Shown here: one piece after another, positions 25,631-37,228 of the stretch | Layout of the letters: each line of letters starts with the position of its first letter | Position numbering within the stretch: position 1 is the stretch's first letter | IMG/VR virus record: IMGVR_UViG_2681813224_000020 | Reading direction: 5' to 3' (one strand) | DNA: 41,996 nt | Origin: a virus | Lineage: Duplodnaviria; Heunggongvirae; Uroviricota; Caudoviricetes | Position numbers and translations under genes: made by a program | Notes under the pieces: model-generated | Told to the model about the DNA's origin: nothing | What the model saw: only the letters and a program-made list of their open reading frames with translations | The model's database searches: none

Positions 25631-25679
25631 AGCTCTGACCTCTACGTTTTGCTACGAAAAAATTTTCTGAGAACCACGT

Positions 25680-25935
25680 TTGTTTATCCGTGGGTGTGGA
25701 TAACGCAGTTCCGATTCGCTTATTACACGCTGTTATGTGCAAAAAATTCCTTGTTCGGCCTGTACCAACCTGTACCCACCTGTACCAGCTCTTTTCAAAC
25801 CTTTTCCCCAAGCGACTTATATATATATATGGGGTTCTTAGTAATTAGGTTGGTACAGATGGTACAGTTGGTACTGGCCTTTAAATTCAATTAGTTAAAA
25901 TGTACCAACCTCTATTTTGAGGTTGGTACAGGTTG
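25680..25935. other. Putative origin of replication: DnaA box, two triplets of 10-bp iterons in inverted orientation flanking an (AT)n tract, and a terminal palindrome
   Basis: TGTGGATAA at 25695..25703; direct repeats TGTACCAACC / TGTACCCACC / TGTACCAGCT at 25761..25790 with exact 10-bp periodicity; TTATATATATATAT at 25818..25831; inverted copies GGTTGGTACA, ATGGTACAG, GTTGGTACTG at 25848..25876; 12-bp perfect palindrome TGTACCAACCTC-N6-GAGGTTGGTACA at 25901..25930 overlapping the primase stop. Confidence 0.45.
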
Positions 25936-28107: not shown

Positions 28108-28320
28108 TTAAGCCTTTTTATCGTTTTGTGAGCCATACAACAGCCAATTAGGGTCGCAATCCAATGCTATAGACATTTCAAGAAGATAACGTGGCCGAGC
28201 AATAACACCACTTTCAATTCTGTTTATTGCCTGCTGGCTCACTCCTGTGAGCTCAGCCAACGTAACTTGCGTCATTTTGAGTTCTTTACGTCGTTCTTTT
28301 ACTCGGGTCGCTAAGGTCAT
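28108..28320 (-). CDS. Cro-like HTH (XRE-family) regulator
   Basis: Start MTLATRVKERRKELKMTQVTLAELTGVSQQAINRIESG preceded by GAGGTGA; divergent from the CI-like gene. The ORF track extends to 28338 via a TTG. Confidence 0.6.
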   Translation of the reverse strand: MTLATRVKERRKELKMTQVTLAELTGVSQQAINRIESGVIARPRYLLEMSIALDCDPNWLLYGSQNDKKA

Positions 28321-28440
28321 TGCTTTCACCTCATACAATTTTAGTGGTATTTAGCAACAACAAATGAGGTTTGTCAAATACAACAAAAATTGTTTTTAAT
28401 GTGGGGATACACATTAATACAACCCAGAAGGACTAATCCC
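28321..28440. promoter_or_regulatory. Divergent immunity-switch region (OR-like) with operator dyads and a candidate pR-like promoter
   Basis: Dyads ATACAATTTTAGTGGTAT (28333..28350) and ATACAACAAAAATTGTTT (28378..28395), third ATACAA at 28417; minus strand has TTGACA-N18-TAAATA upstream of the cro-like start. Confidence 0.45.
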
Positions 28441-29064
28441 ATGTCTCTCGCAGCCCGTTTTAAAGCACGTCGTTTGGAATTAGGAATGACTCAAGTGGAA
28501 GTAGCGAATTCTGCAGGGGTTAGCCAACAATCCATAGAATCCATCGAAAGCGGACGAACCAGAAAGCCACGCAATCTTCTGGATCTGGCTAAGGCCTTGA
28601 AATGTAGCCCAGACTGGCTACTGAACGGTAAAAATATTATGCCTCTCGCGGAGATAAGTACCAGACGCATACCTATATTAAGTTACGTTCAGGCAGGAGA
28701 GCTTACAGAAGCAAGAGACATAACAGATCTGACAGGGGAATTTGAATATATTTTGGCAGACTCTGACATTCCAGAAACATGCTTCGCATTACGTATCGAT
28801 GGCGACAGCATGCAACCAGAGTTTAAAGAAGGAGACATTGTTATCATCGATCCTGATCTATGTCCTGCACCAGGGGAGTTTGTTGTCGCCAAAAACGACG
28901 GTCACGAAGCTACATTTAAAAAATACCGTCCATTAGGAATCGGCATCGACGACTTTGAATTAATCCCCCTAAATCCTGATTACCCTATTTTTCGTAGTGC
29001 AGATATGAACTTACAGATCATAGGTGTAATGATCGAACACCGTATTTACCGCCGTAAACGTTAG
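28441..29064 (+). CDS. CI-like repressor (N-terminal XRE HTH, C-terminal S24 LexA-type autopeptidase)
   Basis: Start MSLAARFKARRLELGMTQVEVANSAGVSQQSIESIESG preceded by AAGGA; C-terminal FALRIDGDSMQPEF...VVAKNDGHEATFKKY carries the Ser/Lys dyad context. The ORF track start 28390 adds 17 codons. Confidence 0.8.
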   Translation: MSLAARFKARRLELGMTQVEVANSAGVSQQSIESIESGRTRKPRNLLDLAKALKCSPDWLLNGKNIMPLAEISTRRIPILSYVQAGELTEARDITDLTGEFEYILADSDIPETCFALRIDGDSMQPEFKEGDIVIIDPDLCPAPGEFVVAKNDGHEATFKKYRPLGIGIDDFELIPLNPDYPIFRSADMNLQIIGVMIEHRIYRRKR

Positions 29065-29175
29065 TATTCCCACCGTAAATATCGGGAGGCGTAACAGCCT
29101 CCCTTACCCCATTTGTAAAGTCTTACAAATTAAATTCACTTAAATATCAATAAAGTAGTATTCACACCTCACAAA

Positions 29176-29218
29176 ATACCACATTTGTGGTTTACACAAT
29201 ACAACTCAAATTGTATCT
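29176..29218 (+). promoter_or_regulatory. OL-like operator pair with a candidate rightward early promoter (pL-like)
   Basis: Perfect 18-bp dyad ATACAACTCAAATTGTAT (29199..29216) and ATACCACATTTGTGGTTT (29176..29193), same consensus as the CI/Cro intergenic dyads; TTTACA (29191..29196) - N17 - TATCTT overlapping them. Confidence 0.4.
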
Positions 29219-29386
29219 TTAGCCACAAGTCGAACGGCGCGACTCTAAACCATGCGTCGGGACCGTGGCGGGACAGGATGTCGGCAATACGGGTCAGTAA
29301 GTTCCCTTTGGGGTGCGGCGAAGCACTGTCTACTGATACAAGTCGAAGCCGCCGAACCACCAAAGTGAACTGAATGAGGAAACGGC

Positions 29387-29581
29387 GTGAAAACGTATAA
29401 ACCGCTCAAAGGTGAATGCCCTGCTTGCCAAACACAGCTTCTGACACCAAAGCCAAAACGATACCAAATCAACGAATGTTATGAGCACTGCCCTGGATGT
29501 GGTGCTTTCCTGCATACCATTGCAACGCACTGGCGTGTCCGCTTCAACCTTGTGGTACCACGTACGCACAATACCAACTGA
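29387..29581 (+). CDS. Small zinc-ribbon protein (Cys4), first gene of the rightward early operon
   Basis: 64 aa; CPACQ-N19-CPGCG; GTG start with RBS GAGGAAA; followed by a terminator. Confidence 0.45.
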   Translation: MKTYKPLKGECPACQTQLLTPKPKRYQINECYEHCPGCGAFLHTIATHWRVRFNLVVPRTHNTN

Positions 29582-29610: not shown

Positions 29611-29638
29611 TTGCCCGCCTCACGTGACGGGCTTTTTT
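29611..29638 (+). terminator. Rho-independent terminator after the zinc-ribbon gene
   Basis: GCCCGCCTCACGTGACGGGC followed by TTTTTT. Confidence 0.55.
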
Positions 29639-32704: not shown

Positions 32705-34207
32705 GTGTCAACTTTGAGAATCGGTATGGAAATCCAAGAGTTTGTAAGTCACTATAAAAACCACCCTGTTCTATTCATTGGAACAGGATTTAGCCTACGG
32801 TATCTAGAAAACTCATTTAGCTGGGATGGTCTTCTTTTGAGTGTCGCAATGGAACTAACCGGTAATGCTGAGTTTTACTACGATTTGAAAGCTGAAAGCC
32901 TAGAAGGTGACGACTATCGATATGATATCTTAGCTACAAAACTTGAAGATATTTTTAATAAAAAGCTGGCAGAAGACCGTAACGGTAAGTTCAAAGACAT
33001 CAATGATGTTTTCTATGAGCACATGAAAAAAGGAAAAAAACTAAGTCGATTCAAAATTTATTTAACTTCAATACTTAAAGACCTAAAGATAAAAGAGTCA
33101 ATGATGGAGGAAATAAACAGCTTAATAAAAACAAGAAAAAACATAGGCTCCATCATTACAACAAACTACGACCAACTCGTAGAGAATATCTTCGAATTTA
33201 ACCCACTGATTGGTAACAACATTCTTTTAAGTAACCCATACGGTTCAGTTTACAAAATACATGGCTGTGTTAGTGATCCTAACAACATAATTATCACAGG
33301 TGAAGACTACGCAAACTTCGACAATAAATATGAGTTAATTCGCGCTCAATTACTCTCAATATTCATACACAACCCTATCATATTTATAGGGTATAGTATT
33401 AGCGATAAAAACATTAAGTACTTATTAAAAACCATATTCTCATACGTTGACTTAAATACCGAACTTGCAAAAAGGATAAAAGATAATTTCCTTTTGGTTG
33501 AATACGAAAAAGACAGCATGTCAACTGAAATTACGGAGCATGACATAGATATAGAAGGCATGTCTATCATAAGAATAAACAAAATAAAAACAAACAATTA
33601 CAAAGCTGTATATGATGCCATCTCTGGACTAGTTTTGCCAGTATCCGCAATGGACATAAGAAAGGTTCAAAAAGTTTGGAGTACCATCAAAAGTGGTGGT
33701 GAGATAAAGGTTAAAATTACAGAAAATTTAGATGAACTTCGCAATGATGAAATGGTCATTGCTGTTGGTTCAGAAAGAACCGTACAATATGTTTATCAAA
33801 CAAAATCTGAAATGATACAGAACTATTTTAAAATAGTTGACGAAGCAAACTCTCAGCTTATCGCATTACTGAATAAGCAAACCATAGCTAATAGCGAACA
33901 CTTTCCAATATACGCTTTTAGTTCTATCTGCCCTGAACTAGAAAATACCGAGACATACAGAAAACGGCAGCTAGATAAAATCATTGGTAACCTTTCTCGA
34001 ATTAAAACATGTAAGAGTGAGGCTGTGTCTATTGATGAAATACTAAAAGAAACGAAAGAGTATAAAGTTGCTAACACGATTATGTATTGCGTACTAAACG
34101 ATACTATTTCATTGAAACAACTACGAGATTATTTAACAAAACCAGGGCATAAAATTGATACCCAATACAGGCGACTTTTATGCTTGTATGATTATTTATC
34201 ATATTAA
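32705..34207 (+). CDS. SIR2-like (SIR2_2 / DUF4020-type) protein with a C-terminal domain of unknown function; candidate NADase-type anti-phage defence gene, AT-rich insertion
   Basis: 500 aa; motifs in order PVLFIGTGFS, SWDGLL, IITTNYDQLVE, YKIHGCVSDPNNIIITGEDY, NPIIFIGYSISDKN match the hallmark pattern of the defence-associated SIR2 family; codon usage is strongly AT-rich against its flanks; GTG start with RBS AGAGG; own terminator. Confidence 0.7.
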   Translation: MSTLRIGMEIQEFVSHYKNHPVLFIGTGFSLRYLENSFSWDGLLLSVAMELTGNAEFYYDLKAESLEGDDYRYDILATKLEDIFNKKLAEDRNGKFKDINDVFYEHMKKGKKLSRFKIYLTSILKDLKIKESMMEEINSLIKTRKNIGSIITTNYDQLVENIFEFNPLIGNNILLSNPYGSVYKIHGCVSDPNNIIITGEDYANFDNKYELIRAQLLSIFIHNPIIFIGYSISDKNIKYLLKTIFSYVDLNTELAKRIKDNFLLVEYEKDSMSTEITEHDIDIEGMSIIRINKIKTNNYKAVYDAISGLVLPVSAMDIRKVQKVWSTIKSGGEIKVKITENLDELRNDEMVIAVGSERTVQYVYQTKSEMIQNYFKIVDEANSQLIALLNKQTIANSEHFPIYAFSSICPELENTETYRKRQLDKIIGNLSRIKTCKSEAVSIDEILKETKEYKVANTIMYCVLNDTISLKQLRDYLTKPGHKIDTQYRRLLCLYDYLSY

Positions 34208-34228: not shown

Positions 34229-34256
34229 AAAAGCCGCCATTTTGGCGGCTTTTTAT
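34229..34256 (+). terminator. Rho-independent terminator after the SIR2-like gene
   Basis: AGCCGCCATTTTGGCGGCT followed by TTTTATTTATT. Confidence 0.55.
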
Positions 34257-34283
34257 TTATTAAATCCAACGGGTCCTTACTTG

Positions 34284-36412: not shown

Positions 36413-37174
36413 ATGATGCAGGATCTCAATGAAATGGCTCTCAAATACCCACACCCTGTCGAAACTTTTCGTCAATTTTTAGTCGAATCCGGATTTGATG
36501 TTACCGGAGAAGAAAACAAAGCCGGTCATGATTGTTATCGTTTAAGTAATGGTGCCATCATAACGCTTTACCACACCGGAACGATTTTGATTCAAGGCTC
36601 ACAAGCGGCAAAACCAGAGGTTGAAGCCATTATTAATGAACACTTGGGTAACGCGCCAGCTCAACGAGTTCAGCCAGCCCCGGTTCAAGAGCCAGCCAAA
36701 AAGATTTTCATCGTTCACGGTCACGACCATGCAGCAAAAGAGCAGCTTGAGCTCATTCTTCATAAGCTTGGGTTACCTGATCATTTTATTTTGCAGAATA
36801 CAGGTGGTACTGGACTTACGATAATTGAAGAACTGGAGCGTGAAATTGGTCAAGGGCAGACAGCGACTCGTTTCGGCATTGTTCTTCTCACTCCCGATGA
36901 TGTGGGATACTCCAAAAGAGACGGTCAAGAAGCAGCCCTGCCCAGGGCTCGTCAAAATGTAGTTCTAGAAATGGGGATGTTGTTATCATCACTCGGCCGC
37001 AGTAACGTGGTCATCTTGCAGAAGCAACACCTTGAACAGCCTTCTGATGCTGCGGGTATTCTTTATCTCAACTTTAATGATCATGTTCGAGAAACTGTAC
37101 CTCGCTTAATCCAGCGCCTTAAACAGGCCGGTTTCACATTTAATGAAGCTCAAATAGCGAACGCTTCATCTTAA
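36413..37174 (+). CDS. Two-domain protein: small N-terminal domain plus C-terminal Rossmann-like nucleotide-binding domain resembling TIR-like / SLOG families; candidate accessory gene
   Basis: 253 aa; C-terminal domain motifs KKIFIVHGHDHAAKEQ, NTGGTGLTIIEELERE, FGIVLLTPDD; Pro/Gln-rich linker APAQRVQPAPVQEPA; RBS AGGAAA; own terminator. Family assignment is tentative. Confidence 0.4.
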   Translation: MMQDLNEMALKYPHPVETFRQFLVESGFDVTGEENKAGHDCYRLSNGAIITLYHTGTILIQGSQAAKPEVEAIINEHLGNAPAQRVQPAPVQEPAKKIFIVHGHDHAAKEQLELILHKLGLPDHFILQNTGGTGLTIIEELEREIGQGQTATRFGIVLLTPDDVGYSKRDGQEAALPRARQNVVLEMGMLLSSLGRSNVVILQKQHLEQPSDAAGILYLNFNDHVRETVPRLIQRLKQAGFTFNEAQIANASS

Positions 37175-37195
37175 TCAATCATTTTTCTAAAAAGT

Positions 37196-37228
37196 AAATA
37201 CCCCTGCAAATGCAGGGGTATTTATTTG
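37196..37228 (+). terminator. Rho-independent terminator after the TIR/SLOG-like gene
   Basis: ACCCCTGCAAATGCAGGGGT followed by ATTTATTTG. Confidence 0.55.

Follow-up and report, generated by a model that had tools for sequence, protein, structure and literature searches.

Operator dyads on both sides of a repressor gene point to a phage 434-type genetic switch in an Escherichia coli prophage

The repressor gene of an Escherichia coli prophage is flanked on both sides by short, similar dyads, which raises the question of whether one regulator controls both the leftward and the rightward operon. The whole stretch of DNA that we analysed, hereafter termed the window, comprises 41,996 bp (Caudoviricetes, IMGVR_UViG_2681813224_000020), and ECONIH2 carries an identical, annotated prophage. 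The leftward operon runs from cro through the VapE primase, Q and lysis genes to the structural genes, and the rightward operon includes genes for DUF2800, DUF2815, a DNA polymerase and a helicase. An initial annotation had claimed four dyads related to ATACAA-N6-TTGTAT, and direct reading of the sequence found each of them where it had been placed. Judging from sequence comparisons, these dyads are very probably real sites of a 434-type lysis/lysogeny switch, and we consider it highly likely that this prophage immunity region functions as the phage 434 genetic switch does. The class of switch is well understood and ordinary, and the knowledge of repressor-operator systems is left unchanged.

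Among solved structures, the best match of the repressor was the 434 repressor (E = 5.9 × 10−16), and the alignment of its residues 2-65 with residues 1-64 of the latter is gapless and keeps QQSIE. The recognition helix begins with QQS and the half-sites read AC(A/C)A; because helix residue 33 is Ser as opposed to Gln in 434, the specificity may differ in detail. Pfam recovered HTH_3 and Peptidase_S24 (E = 1.8 × 10−21). Across 20 homologues including 434 cI, Ala85 of an Ala-Gly pair is invariant and Gly86 nearly so, and Ser123 (in GDSM) and Lys160/161 are invariant. The Cro-like protein best matched 434 Cro (E = 1.9 × 10−19 over residues 2-69), and a QQ recognition helix occurs in both proteins (SQQSIES in the repressor, SQQAINR in Cro). 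The hairpin that follows the repressor stop is likely the cI terminator, with a weak T tail; at this position the relatives each have a GC-rich hairpin of differing sequence.

Three matches to ATACAA-N6-TTGTAT with at most two mismatches were found in the 41,996 bp, all of them beside the repressor gene. Chance would place 0.026 such matches in the two intergenic regions beside the gene (Poisson P(≥3) ~3 × 10−6), and none of 3,000 block shuffles put even two sites there, a test that is partly circular, since these very sites had supplied the motif. The 434 operator, ACAA-N6-TTGT, provides an independent motif: it is matched perfectly at only two places of the window (28380 and 29201), both in the regions flanking the repressor gene (0.011 expected, P ~6 × 10−5). 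With one mismatch allowed, the whole window holds 17 matches compared with 20 expected. The regions beside the repressor gene that hold the close matches total ~440 bp.

In the cI/cro intergenic region, two dyads had been described as overlapping a minus-strand promoter. Both are real and represent the putative OR1 and OR3, but the count of two was wrong because OR2 had been missed (Table 1). Three 14-bp sites overlap PR and PRM, with one (OR1), two (OR2) and no (OR3) mismatches to the 434 core, and the 18-bp dyads that contain OR1 and OR3 have one mismatch each to ATACAA-N6-TTGTAT. The locations of OR1 and OR3 equal those in 434; OR1 is unchanged in 7 close relatives, and OR3 is conserved in relatives. 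The centre of OR2 lies 22 bp from that of OR1 and 23 bp from that of OR3, a spacing identical to 434. Both OR2 mismatches fall in one half-site; 9 relatives all keep its outer AC...GT, and the pE76 version has a single mismatch. Because OR3 and not OR1 is the best consensus match, the occupancy order OR1 > OR2 > OR3 of the classical switch is not obviously given.

The -35 block between OR2 and OR3, TTTGTCAAAT, is identical to that of 434 and, except for two positions, invariant across 9 relatives. Of the minus-strand promoter proposed earlier, TTGACA is present, but the -10 element TAAATA with an 18-nt spacer (28353-28348) is ambiguous by one base, the alternative being CTAAAT, whose counterpart in 434 is GAAAAT between OR1 and OR2. 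OR1 follows immediately downstream of this element, touching CTAAAT or sharing one base with TAAATA, and extends over the predicted PR start (~28341, minus strand). PR is absent from the promoter scan list because TAAATA lacks the final T; the -10 elements of PR and PRM are both poor matches that the scan did not call. The candidate PRM -10 element occupies a position homologous to the 434 sequence after OR3 and is partly conserved in relatives; the predicted PRM start is ~28407 (plus strand). A perfect 8+8 dyad at 28396-28417, TTAATGTG-N6-CACATTAA, was considered as a further operator; none of 8 relatives conserves it. The consensus of CRP is TGTGA-N6-TCACA and that of LexA is CTGT-N8-ACAG; the same dyad misfits a CRP site in spacing and a LexA box in sequence.

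Beyond cI, a second group of putative operators covers PL. The perfect dyad reported about 130 bp past the repressor stop begins 135 bp after the stop, which ends at 29064, and the OL1 core within it is a perfect 434 core whose half-sites are kept in relatives while the spacer varies. The neighbouring dyad has three mismatches to ATACAA-N6-TTGTAT; its 14-bp core, OL2, is a perfect palindrome with the ACCA/TGGT half-site, also found in the dyad at 28333-28350, in both halves, and it is unchanged in pE76 and three further relatives. OL1 and OL2 are 23 bp apart from centre to centre, as in 434, and bracket the -35 hexamer of PL. The scan recovered the plus-strand promoter TTTACA-N17-TATCTT (29191-29219) that had been called before. 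Its TTTACA recurs at the corresponding position of 434 and of the annotated HK022 pL and is invariant in relatives. The -10 element reads TAGAGT, TAGATT, TACATT, TAATTT or TAAATT in relatives, with T1, A2 and T6 invariant and positions 3-5 only 28% identical. The possible OL3 has three mismatches as an 18-mer and belongs to a block that is conserved in 5 close relatives, where its right half is TGGT.

Table 1. Predicted features of the immunity region and the start of the rightward transcript (positions in the window)
Feature	Position	Strand	Sequence and description
cro-like gene	28108..28320	minus	70 aa, HTH_3; first gene of leftward operon
OR1	28335..28348		core ACAATTTTAGTGGT of dyad 28333-28350 ATACAATTTTAGTGGTAT; putative site
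PR -10	28349..28354	minus	CTAAAT, 17-nt spacer; predicted from position homologous to 434 PR
OR2	28357..28370		ACAACAAATGAGGT; putative degenerate site, 2 mismatches, in PR spacer just upstream of PRM -35
Back-to-back overlapping -35 hexamers	28371..28377	both	PR TTGACA minus (28377-28372), PRM TTGTCA plus (28371-28376)
OR3	28380..28393		core ACAACAAAAATTGT of dyad 28378-28395 ATACAACAAAAATTGTTT; putative, in PRM spacer, upstream of PR -35
Candidate PRM -10	28395..28400	plus	TTTAAT with 18-nt spacer or TTTTAA with 17-nt spacer; weak
cI-type repressor gene	28441..29064	plus	207 aa; predicted 434-like HTH N-domain and S24 self-cleaving C-domain
Hairpin after cI stop	29084..29103	plus	GGGAGGC-N6-GCCTCCC, GC-rich
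Alternative OL3 candidate	29125-29138		ACAAATTAAATTCA
Possible OL3	29146..29159		ATCAATAAAGTAGT; weak, 32 bp from OL2 (31 bp in 434)
OL2	29178..29191		core ACCACATTTGTGGT of dyad 29176-29193 ATACCACATTTGTGGTTT; putative site abutting PL -35
PL -35	29191..29196	plus	TTTACA, promoter scan
OL1	29201..29214		core ACAACTCAAATTGT of dyad 29199-29216 ATACAACTCAAATTGTAT; putative site in PL spacer
PL -10	29214..29219	plus	TATCTT, promoter scan
putL-type antiterminator RNA	29226..29297	plus	begins at predicted PL start (~29226)
Intrinsic terminator	29613..29638	plus	GCCCG...CGGGC then six T; ~390 nt into PL transcript; read from sequence

Comparison with relatives supports the sites, as do their geometry and the homologies of the proteins. 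In a footprint set of 6-8 relatives with repressors 71-92% identical, half-site identity to the window was 0.89 for OR and 0.97 for OL, compared with 0.41-0.53 at unassigned intergenic positions. For co-variation we used 51 loci with a QQ-type helix. The density of perfect ACAR-N6-YTGT sites in them is 17 per kb upstream of cI, 4.0 per kb in the 230 bp past its stop and 0.16 per kb elsewhere. Helices of the QQSW type pair with ACAG half-sites (126 G to 6 A upstream, 74 G to 4 A downstream), and QQ[SA][IV] helices mostly pair with ACAA, a correlation that is imperfect, as both ACAG and ACAA sites accompany QQSIEA-type repressors. Heteroimmune relatives have ACAG in place of ACAA upstream and downstream alike, in step with a change of the recognition helix, and the two-site layout around the PL -35 element is the rule across the family. 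Homology, layout, conservation and half-site co-variation together argue for the earlier proposal that one regulator serves the operators on either side of the repressor gene. The heteroimmune vB_EcoM-606R2, which has the same backbone and a different repressor, was examined for shared dyads of its own and gave no clear result.

The initial annotation had not seen a putL-type RNA at the predicted PL start. This element is 79% identical over 85 nt to putL of HK022, HK75 and O276, where it is annotated as an antiterminator RNA, and the alignment extends from the promoter into put. It folds into two stems with 19 predicted pairs, 7 of which show compensatory changes among 8 sequences. A covariance model built from these sequences scored the window element at 97 bits (E = 1 × 10−25) and also recovered HK022 putR (32 bits) as well as a further copy in phiEt88, but run over the window with filters off it found no putR-like second copy, the next best hits (13 and 7 bits) lying inside genes. 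Rfam at gathering thresholds gave no matches in the whole window; the put family was recognised only via similarity to annotated phages. Put RNA of HK022 binds RNA polymerase and confers terminator resistance (PMC9378689), and relative to the 5′ helix of the cryo-EM structure the RNA described here shows an A5:U17 to U5:A17 swap (PMC9378689). The terminators that would need such read-through, in cis and with no phage protein, lie at 29613-29638, 34232-34259 and 37195-37224; the one at 29613-29638 was not listed by the scan because its loop exceeds 8 nt. The 415-nt PL leader, folded in full, showed no signal (z = −0.09), and an unannotated 64-aa zinc-ribbon ORF at 29387-29581 is not conserved in pE76.

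Phage 434 has two operator regions with three 14-bp sites each (PMC1636474), and its repressor and Cro bind the same six operators (PMC1636474; structures listed in PMC8163980). In the 434B record OL657227, the annotated OL1-3 fall within cI and do not fit the operator motif; the 434 operators were instead placed by pattern, and ACAA-N6-TTGT marks OR1-3 (22 and 23 bp spacing) and OL1-3. The prophage shares with 434 a homologous repressor N-domain and Cro, the QQS helix, an S24 C-domain predicted to be self-cleaving, the 14-bp core ACAA-N6-TTGT, the spacings in OR (22/23 bp) and between OL1 and OL2 (23 bp), the identical -35 block and a PL -35 TTTACA with OL1 in the spacer. It differs in that the full-length repressors are only 38-39% identical, in the ACCA half-site variant, the degenerate OR2 and OR3 as the best consensus match, in an OL that follows cI directly without a hex-like gene between, in a put RNA in place of an N gene and nut site, and in flanking operons that are not lambdoid.

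The dyads had been read as mirroring lambda OR and OL. The logic of that reading agrees with the homology and the comparative data: one three-site operator serves the divergent PR and PRM; PL, which lies past cI and reads the same way, has an operator set of its own; and the repressor is predicted to be SOS-cleavable. However, the nearest model is 434 and not lambda itself, from which the locus departs by 14-bp ACAA-type operators instead of 17-bp sites, by an HTH_3 Cro of the 434 type instead of the lambda Cro fold and by the lack of N/nut antitermination. Membership in the lambda OR/OL class proper was rejected on the operator core and on the best match of Cro. PL is collinear with 434 PL and with the annotated pL and oL sites of HK022, and the put element resembles HK022 putL as a ~70-nt RNA at the PL start, put being found also in HK75, O276 and HK639. 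In contrast to HK022, put is joined here to a 434-type repressor/operator set and followed by a polymerase-type replication module, and the other early operon carries no putR-like second copy. Enterobacter phage CobraSix, Klebsiella phage ST16-OXA48phi5.2 and Yersinia phage vB_YenM_29.18, with repressors 58-60% identical to this one, arrange their operators as here, three upstream of cI and two at 100-165 bp past its stop, but have lambdoid cII and O-type neighbours. Their ACAG half-sites and QQSW helix, as opposed to ACAA and QQSI here, make them heteroimmune.

Homology suggests how binding, promoter activity, cooperativity, PRM activation, repressor cleavage and antitermination would proceed at this locus. 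Repressor dimers would bind the 14-bp operators through the 434-like helix-turn-helix. OR1 over the PR start and OR2 in the PR spacer would together shut off the cro, primase and Q operon, with the weak OR2 probably filled cooperatively; from OR2, just upstream of the PRM -35 element, the repressor could stimulate PRM, and OR3 in the PRM spacer would serve negative autoregulation and allow Cro to shut off cI. At ~115-150 bp past the cI stop, OL2 and OL1 bracket the PL -35 element and fill the PL spacer, so that the same repressor would silence the rightward replication and recombination operon. Upon DNA damage, RecA-stimulated self-cleavage at Ala85-Gly86 would free both promoters, and put-modified polymerase would carry PL transcription past the terminator at 29613-29638 and those that follow SIR2 and TIR. 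This provides a regulatory map of an uncharacterised prophage, with the promoters expected to be silent in the lysogen and the transcript starts expected on induction, and it would also account for terminators being tolerated within the rightward operon.

The map is relevant to work on the SIR2 and TIR genes, candidate defence genes in the rightward operon. Both the SIR2 gene (PDC-S25, at 32705), which is low in GC, and the TIR gene (PDC-S35, at 36413) are cargo-like. Each sits in a variable slot, with a terminator after SIR2 and a terminator-like hairpin after TIR. If the operators work, expression of SIR2 and TIR in the lysogen would not come from PL and would therefore depend on promoters of their own or on leakage. 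That they need their own promoters is a reasonable expectation, and promoter scans upstream of both genes returned only weak matches at chance level and no convincing promoter.

Leakage would mean that the operators are real but that the OL pair represses loosely; in the lysogen, put-modified polymerase starting at PL would then provide weak expression of SIR2, TIR and the remaining rightward genes, which would need no further promoters. The scan result just given fits this, as do the two mismatches of OL2 to the 434 core, the doubtful OL3 and the capacity of put RNA to render even rare PL transcripts processive (PMC9378689). We nevertheless regard it as unlikely: the PL spacer is filled by OL1, a perfect site; the palindrome of OL2 is likewise perfect and has stayed unchanged in four relatives, one of them pE76; two sites about the -35 element are general in the family; and a leaking replication operon would be costly for a lysogen.

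The identity of the regulator is a separate matter. The QQ helix is present in both proteins, so the sites are not assignable from sequence alone; the dyads might be bound mainly by the Cro-like protein, or Cro and repressor might use different subsets, with no single regulator on both sides. In 434, however, both proteins use the same six operators (PMC1636474, PMC8163980), and across the 51 loci the half-site type follows the repressor helix on both sides of the gene, which makes such a division very improbable. Least probable of all is that the dyads are chance palindromes of AT-rich intergenic DNA with no regulatory role. One-mismatch ACAA-N6-TTGT sites are indeed not above expectation in the window, but both perfect matches to this core and all close matches to the 18-bp motif are confined to the ~440 bp beside the repressor gene (P ~6 × 10−5 and ~3 × 10−6), their geometry equals that of 434, and their conservation and co-variation in relatives already contradict a chance origin.

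For the favoured 434-type switch, a further and more tentative reading is that cro-OR-cI-OL-PL-putL forms a portable cassette, in which put-modified polymerase lets terminator-bracketed SIR2/TIR defence cargo sit in an essential early operon without polarity; we hold this to be possible, with the odds against it. If it were true, the same terminators would insulate the transcription of the cargo from the replication genes in the lysogen, and put-type antitermination would be the enabling feature of a defence-gene hot spot in the early operon. Among 5,426 complete E. coli genomes, 43 contain the immunity region and ~150 a related backbone.

The window gene map was obtained by transferring the annotation of the prophage record of E. 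coli ECONIH2, a chromosomal prophage that is 100% identical to 1.8 kb around the operator region; a search of 5,426 complete E. coli genomes found this region in 43 (coverage of at least 80%). The comparisons support a 434-type switch with three sites in the right operator (OR1-OR3, between the cro-like gene and cI) and a put antiterminator RNA behind PL, the rightward promoter past cI, with binding and transcription being predicted. Systems of this kind are thoroughly known and this switch is an uncharacterised one; the operator and promoter assignments are useful as a map.

Features of the switch region and of the flanking operons (window coordinates)
Feature	Coordinates	Position or orientation	Basis
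VapE-type primase, antiterminator Q, lysis genes, terminase, myovirus-like structural genes		leftward, after HTH gene	ECONIH2 annotation
Primase-Q gap	25631-25930		
HTH gene, 70 aa	28108-28320	first leftward of operator region	ECONIH2 annotation
OR1	28335-28348 (18-bp dyad 28333-28350)		
OR3	28380-28393 (18-bp dyad 28378-28395)		
Perfect 8+8 dyad	28396-28417	between OR3 and cI ribosome-binding site	
LexA-family repressor (cI)	28441-29064	rightward	ECONIH2 annotation
Conserved block, ~55 bp	29105-29161	between cI terminator and OL2	
OL3 candidate (alternative)	29125-29138	inside conserved block	
OL3 candidate	29146-29159	inside conserved block, 32 bp from OL2	
OL2	29178-29191 (18-bp dyad 29176-29193)		
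OL1	29201-29214 (18-bp dyad 29199-29216)		
put element	29226-29297 (+)	directly behind PL	
64-aa ORF, unannotated	29387-29581 (+)	between put and first terminator	
Canonical intrinsic terminator (hairpin + T run)	29613-29638	after small leader ORF	
Small ORFs, DUF2800, DUF2815, SIR2 gene, DNA polymerase		rightward past repressor	ECONIH2 annotation
SIR2 gene	32705-34207		
Canonical intrinsic terminator (hairpin + T run)	34232-34259	right after SIR2, before DNA polymerase gene	
TIR gene, VRR-NUC, helicase, integrase adjoining yfhL		further rightward	ECONIH2 annotation
TIR gene	36413-37174		
Strong terminator-like hairpin, weaker T-rich tail	37195-37224	after TIR	

The top solved-structure match of the repressor N-domain was the 434 repressor (E 5.9e-16, gapless, with the recognition helix QQSIE kept), and that of the divergent HTH protein was 434 Cro (E 1.9e-19). 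The repressor C-domain is Peptidase_S24; across 20 homologues, Ala85, the serine of GDSM and the lysine of TFKK were invariant and Gly86, which forms an Ala-Gly pair with Ala85, was nearly so.

The initial annotation had described four 18-bp dyads with the consensus ATACAA-N6-TTGTAT flanking the repressor gene, and all four were confirmed by reading the sequence. Three carry zero or one mismatch and are the only matches in the window at up to two mismatches; the fourth, OL2, has three mismatches and a perfectly palindromic core, ACCACATTTGTGGT, with the half-site ACCA/TGGT, which also occurs in the first dyad. Because Ser replaces the Gln of the 434 repressor at helix residue 33, the window repressor may bind ACCA half-sites no less well than ACAA. 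Block shuffling with the consensus, a motif derived from the tested sites themselves, gave an expectation of 0.026 matches in the two intergenic regions flanking the repressor gene, and 0 of 3,000 shuffles placed two matches there. When the test was repeated with an independent motif, the 434 operator ACAA-N6-TTGT, exactly two perfect cores were found in the window (28380 and 29201), both in the repressor-flanking regions (P ~6e-5); the 18-bp dyad is this 14-bp 434 core with AT on either side.

Phage 434 has two operator regions with three 14-bp sites in each (PMC1636474), and its repressor and Cro have been co-crystallised on operator sites (structures listed in PMC8163980). In the 434 genome, ACAA-N6-TTGT located three sites between cro and cI (centre-to-centre distances of 22 and 23 bp) and three before N (31 and 23 bp). 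The right operator of the window reads OR1 ACAATTTTAGTGGT, atttagca, OR2 ACAACAAATGAGGT, ttgtcaaat and OR3 ACAACAAAAATTGT, with the centre spacing of 434 OR and an identical ttgtcaaat block. Therefore, the two intergenic dyads correspond to OR1 and OR3 by alignment with 434, but the count of two sites was short because a degenerate OR2 had been overlooked. OR3 and OL1 match the 434 core perfectly, OR1 with one mismatch and OR2 with two, a ranking that does not by itself appear to yield the order in which the sites of the classical switch are occupied.

Within the ttgtcaaat block, the -35 TTGACA of PR, the leftward promoter on the cro side (minus strand), lies back to back with the -35 TTGTCA of the cI promoter PRM (plus strand). 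Judged by location, the PR -10 would be CTAAAT or TAAATA, between OR1 and OR2, and the PRM -10 would be TTTAAT, directly past OR3. The leftward promoter first proposed is upheld in its TTGACA, but the -10 departs from consensus and carries a one-base ambiguity. The overlapping PR and PRM of 434 are reportedly used in a mutually exclusive fashion, a result ascribed to Xu and Koudelka in J Bacteriol in 2000. The perfect dyad TTAATGTG-N6-CACATTAA, which overlies both the -10 and the start predicted for PRM, was conserved in none of eight relatives and fits neither a CRP nor a LexA site.

Downstream of cI, the order is OL2, TTTACA, caat and OL1 ACAACTCAAATTGT, the final base of which starts the -10 TATCTT. 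The 434 OL is collinear with this arrangement (...TATTGT TTACA acat ACAATCTTCCTTGT AATTT), which also holds for the pL annotated in HK022 and the two oL sites there. The proposed rightward TTTACA-N17-TATCTT promoter was called by a promoter scan and gained independent support from the HK022 transcript start, whose alignment would place transcription initiation from PL near 29226, 7 nt past TATCTT. The conserved block, kept in five close relatives with both flanks variable, includes, besides the palindrome ATTTGTAA-N4-TTACAAAT, two weak operator-like sequences, which are only candidates for OL3. In the 434B record OL657227 (locus L002), the annotated OL1-3 at 1341-1422 fall within the coding part of cI and lack ACAA-N6-TTGT; this motif puts OL1-3 at 2285-2352, before N.

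Close relatives (helix QQS-I/V-ES) comprised five contigs and the Enterobacter plasmid pE76, at 79-92% repressor identity, and two extra genomes (71-78%) were included in the OR comparison. Identity to the window was 0.89 (OR) and 0.97 (OL) for half-sites and 0.93-0.97 for -35 blocks, and just 0.41-0.53 for unassigned intergenic positions. T1, A2 and T6 of the PL -10 were unchanged and positions 3-5 were 0.28 identical; in OR2, the outer AC...GT was invariant and the inner positions varied. Heteroimmune relatives (CobraSix, a Klebsiella phage, a Yersinia phage and, in addition, ~25 genomes; repressors ~55-61% identical) have the helix QQSW and ACAG-N6-CTGT sites, three upstream of cI and two 100-165 bp past the cI stop. 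Among 51 QQ-helix loci, perfect ACAR-N6-YTGT sites had a density of 17/kb upstream of cI, 4.0/kb just downstream and 0.16/kb elsewhere; QQSW paired with G at half-site position 4 (126 to 6 upstream, 74 to 4 downstream) and QQ[SA][IV] mostly with A. Upstream and downstream sites thus co-vary and track the recognition helix, and such co-variation is the best available stand-in for a binding experiment. At loci of more distantly related repressors, with the helix SQWES, TTAAG-N4-CTTAA stands on both sides of cI.

The put element is a homologue of HK022 putL (79% identity), which is annotated for the same element in HK75, O276 and HK639; Rfam did not report it. Eight homologues gave a structure of two stems in which 7 pairs are compensated, and the model built from them assigned 97 bits to the window copy and recovered HK022 putR as well; no second, putR-like copy was found in the window. 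The put RNA of HK022 folds within the nascent PL transcript and binds the beta-prime zinc-binding domain, after which polymerase becomes resistant to pausing and termination (PMC9378689). With three terminator-like hairpins inside it, the rightward operon would need antitermination for its polymerase and helicase genes to be expressed from PL, and put-modified polymerase would need to pass all three. Because a boxA-like GCTCTTTAACAA stands in place of put, 100-260 bp past the cI stop, in put-less relatives (loci L034, L018, L009, L010 and L040), put-type and nut-type elements seem to be swapped at one cassette position behind PL. The 64-aa ORF is zinc-ribbon-like, with two CxxC pairs and a weak zf-IS66 match, and was not conserved in the pE76 relative.

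Two PADLOC candidates were matched, PDC-S25 by the SIR2 gene (E 4e-158) and PDC-S35 by the TIR gene (E 2e-109). SIR2 has ~32% GC compared with ~50% in its surroundings, and a canonical terminator follows it. Its cassette occupies a variable slot after DUF2815, with homology breaking at the DUF2815 stop or ~35 bp beyond; of 156 related E. coli prophages, just 5 carry it, and the slot differs in the other 151. Because of these cargo-like features, independent expression of SIR2 and TIR is plausible; no convincing promoter was found before either gene.

Three features of the primase-Q gap together look like replication-origin iterons: the primase stop coincides with a hairpin, TGTACCAACCTC-AAAATA-GAGGTTGGTACA; GGTACAGG occurs as three direct repeats accompanied by inverted copies; and there is a run of (AT)n.
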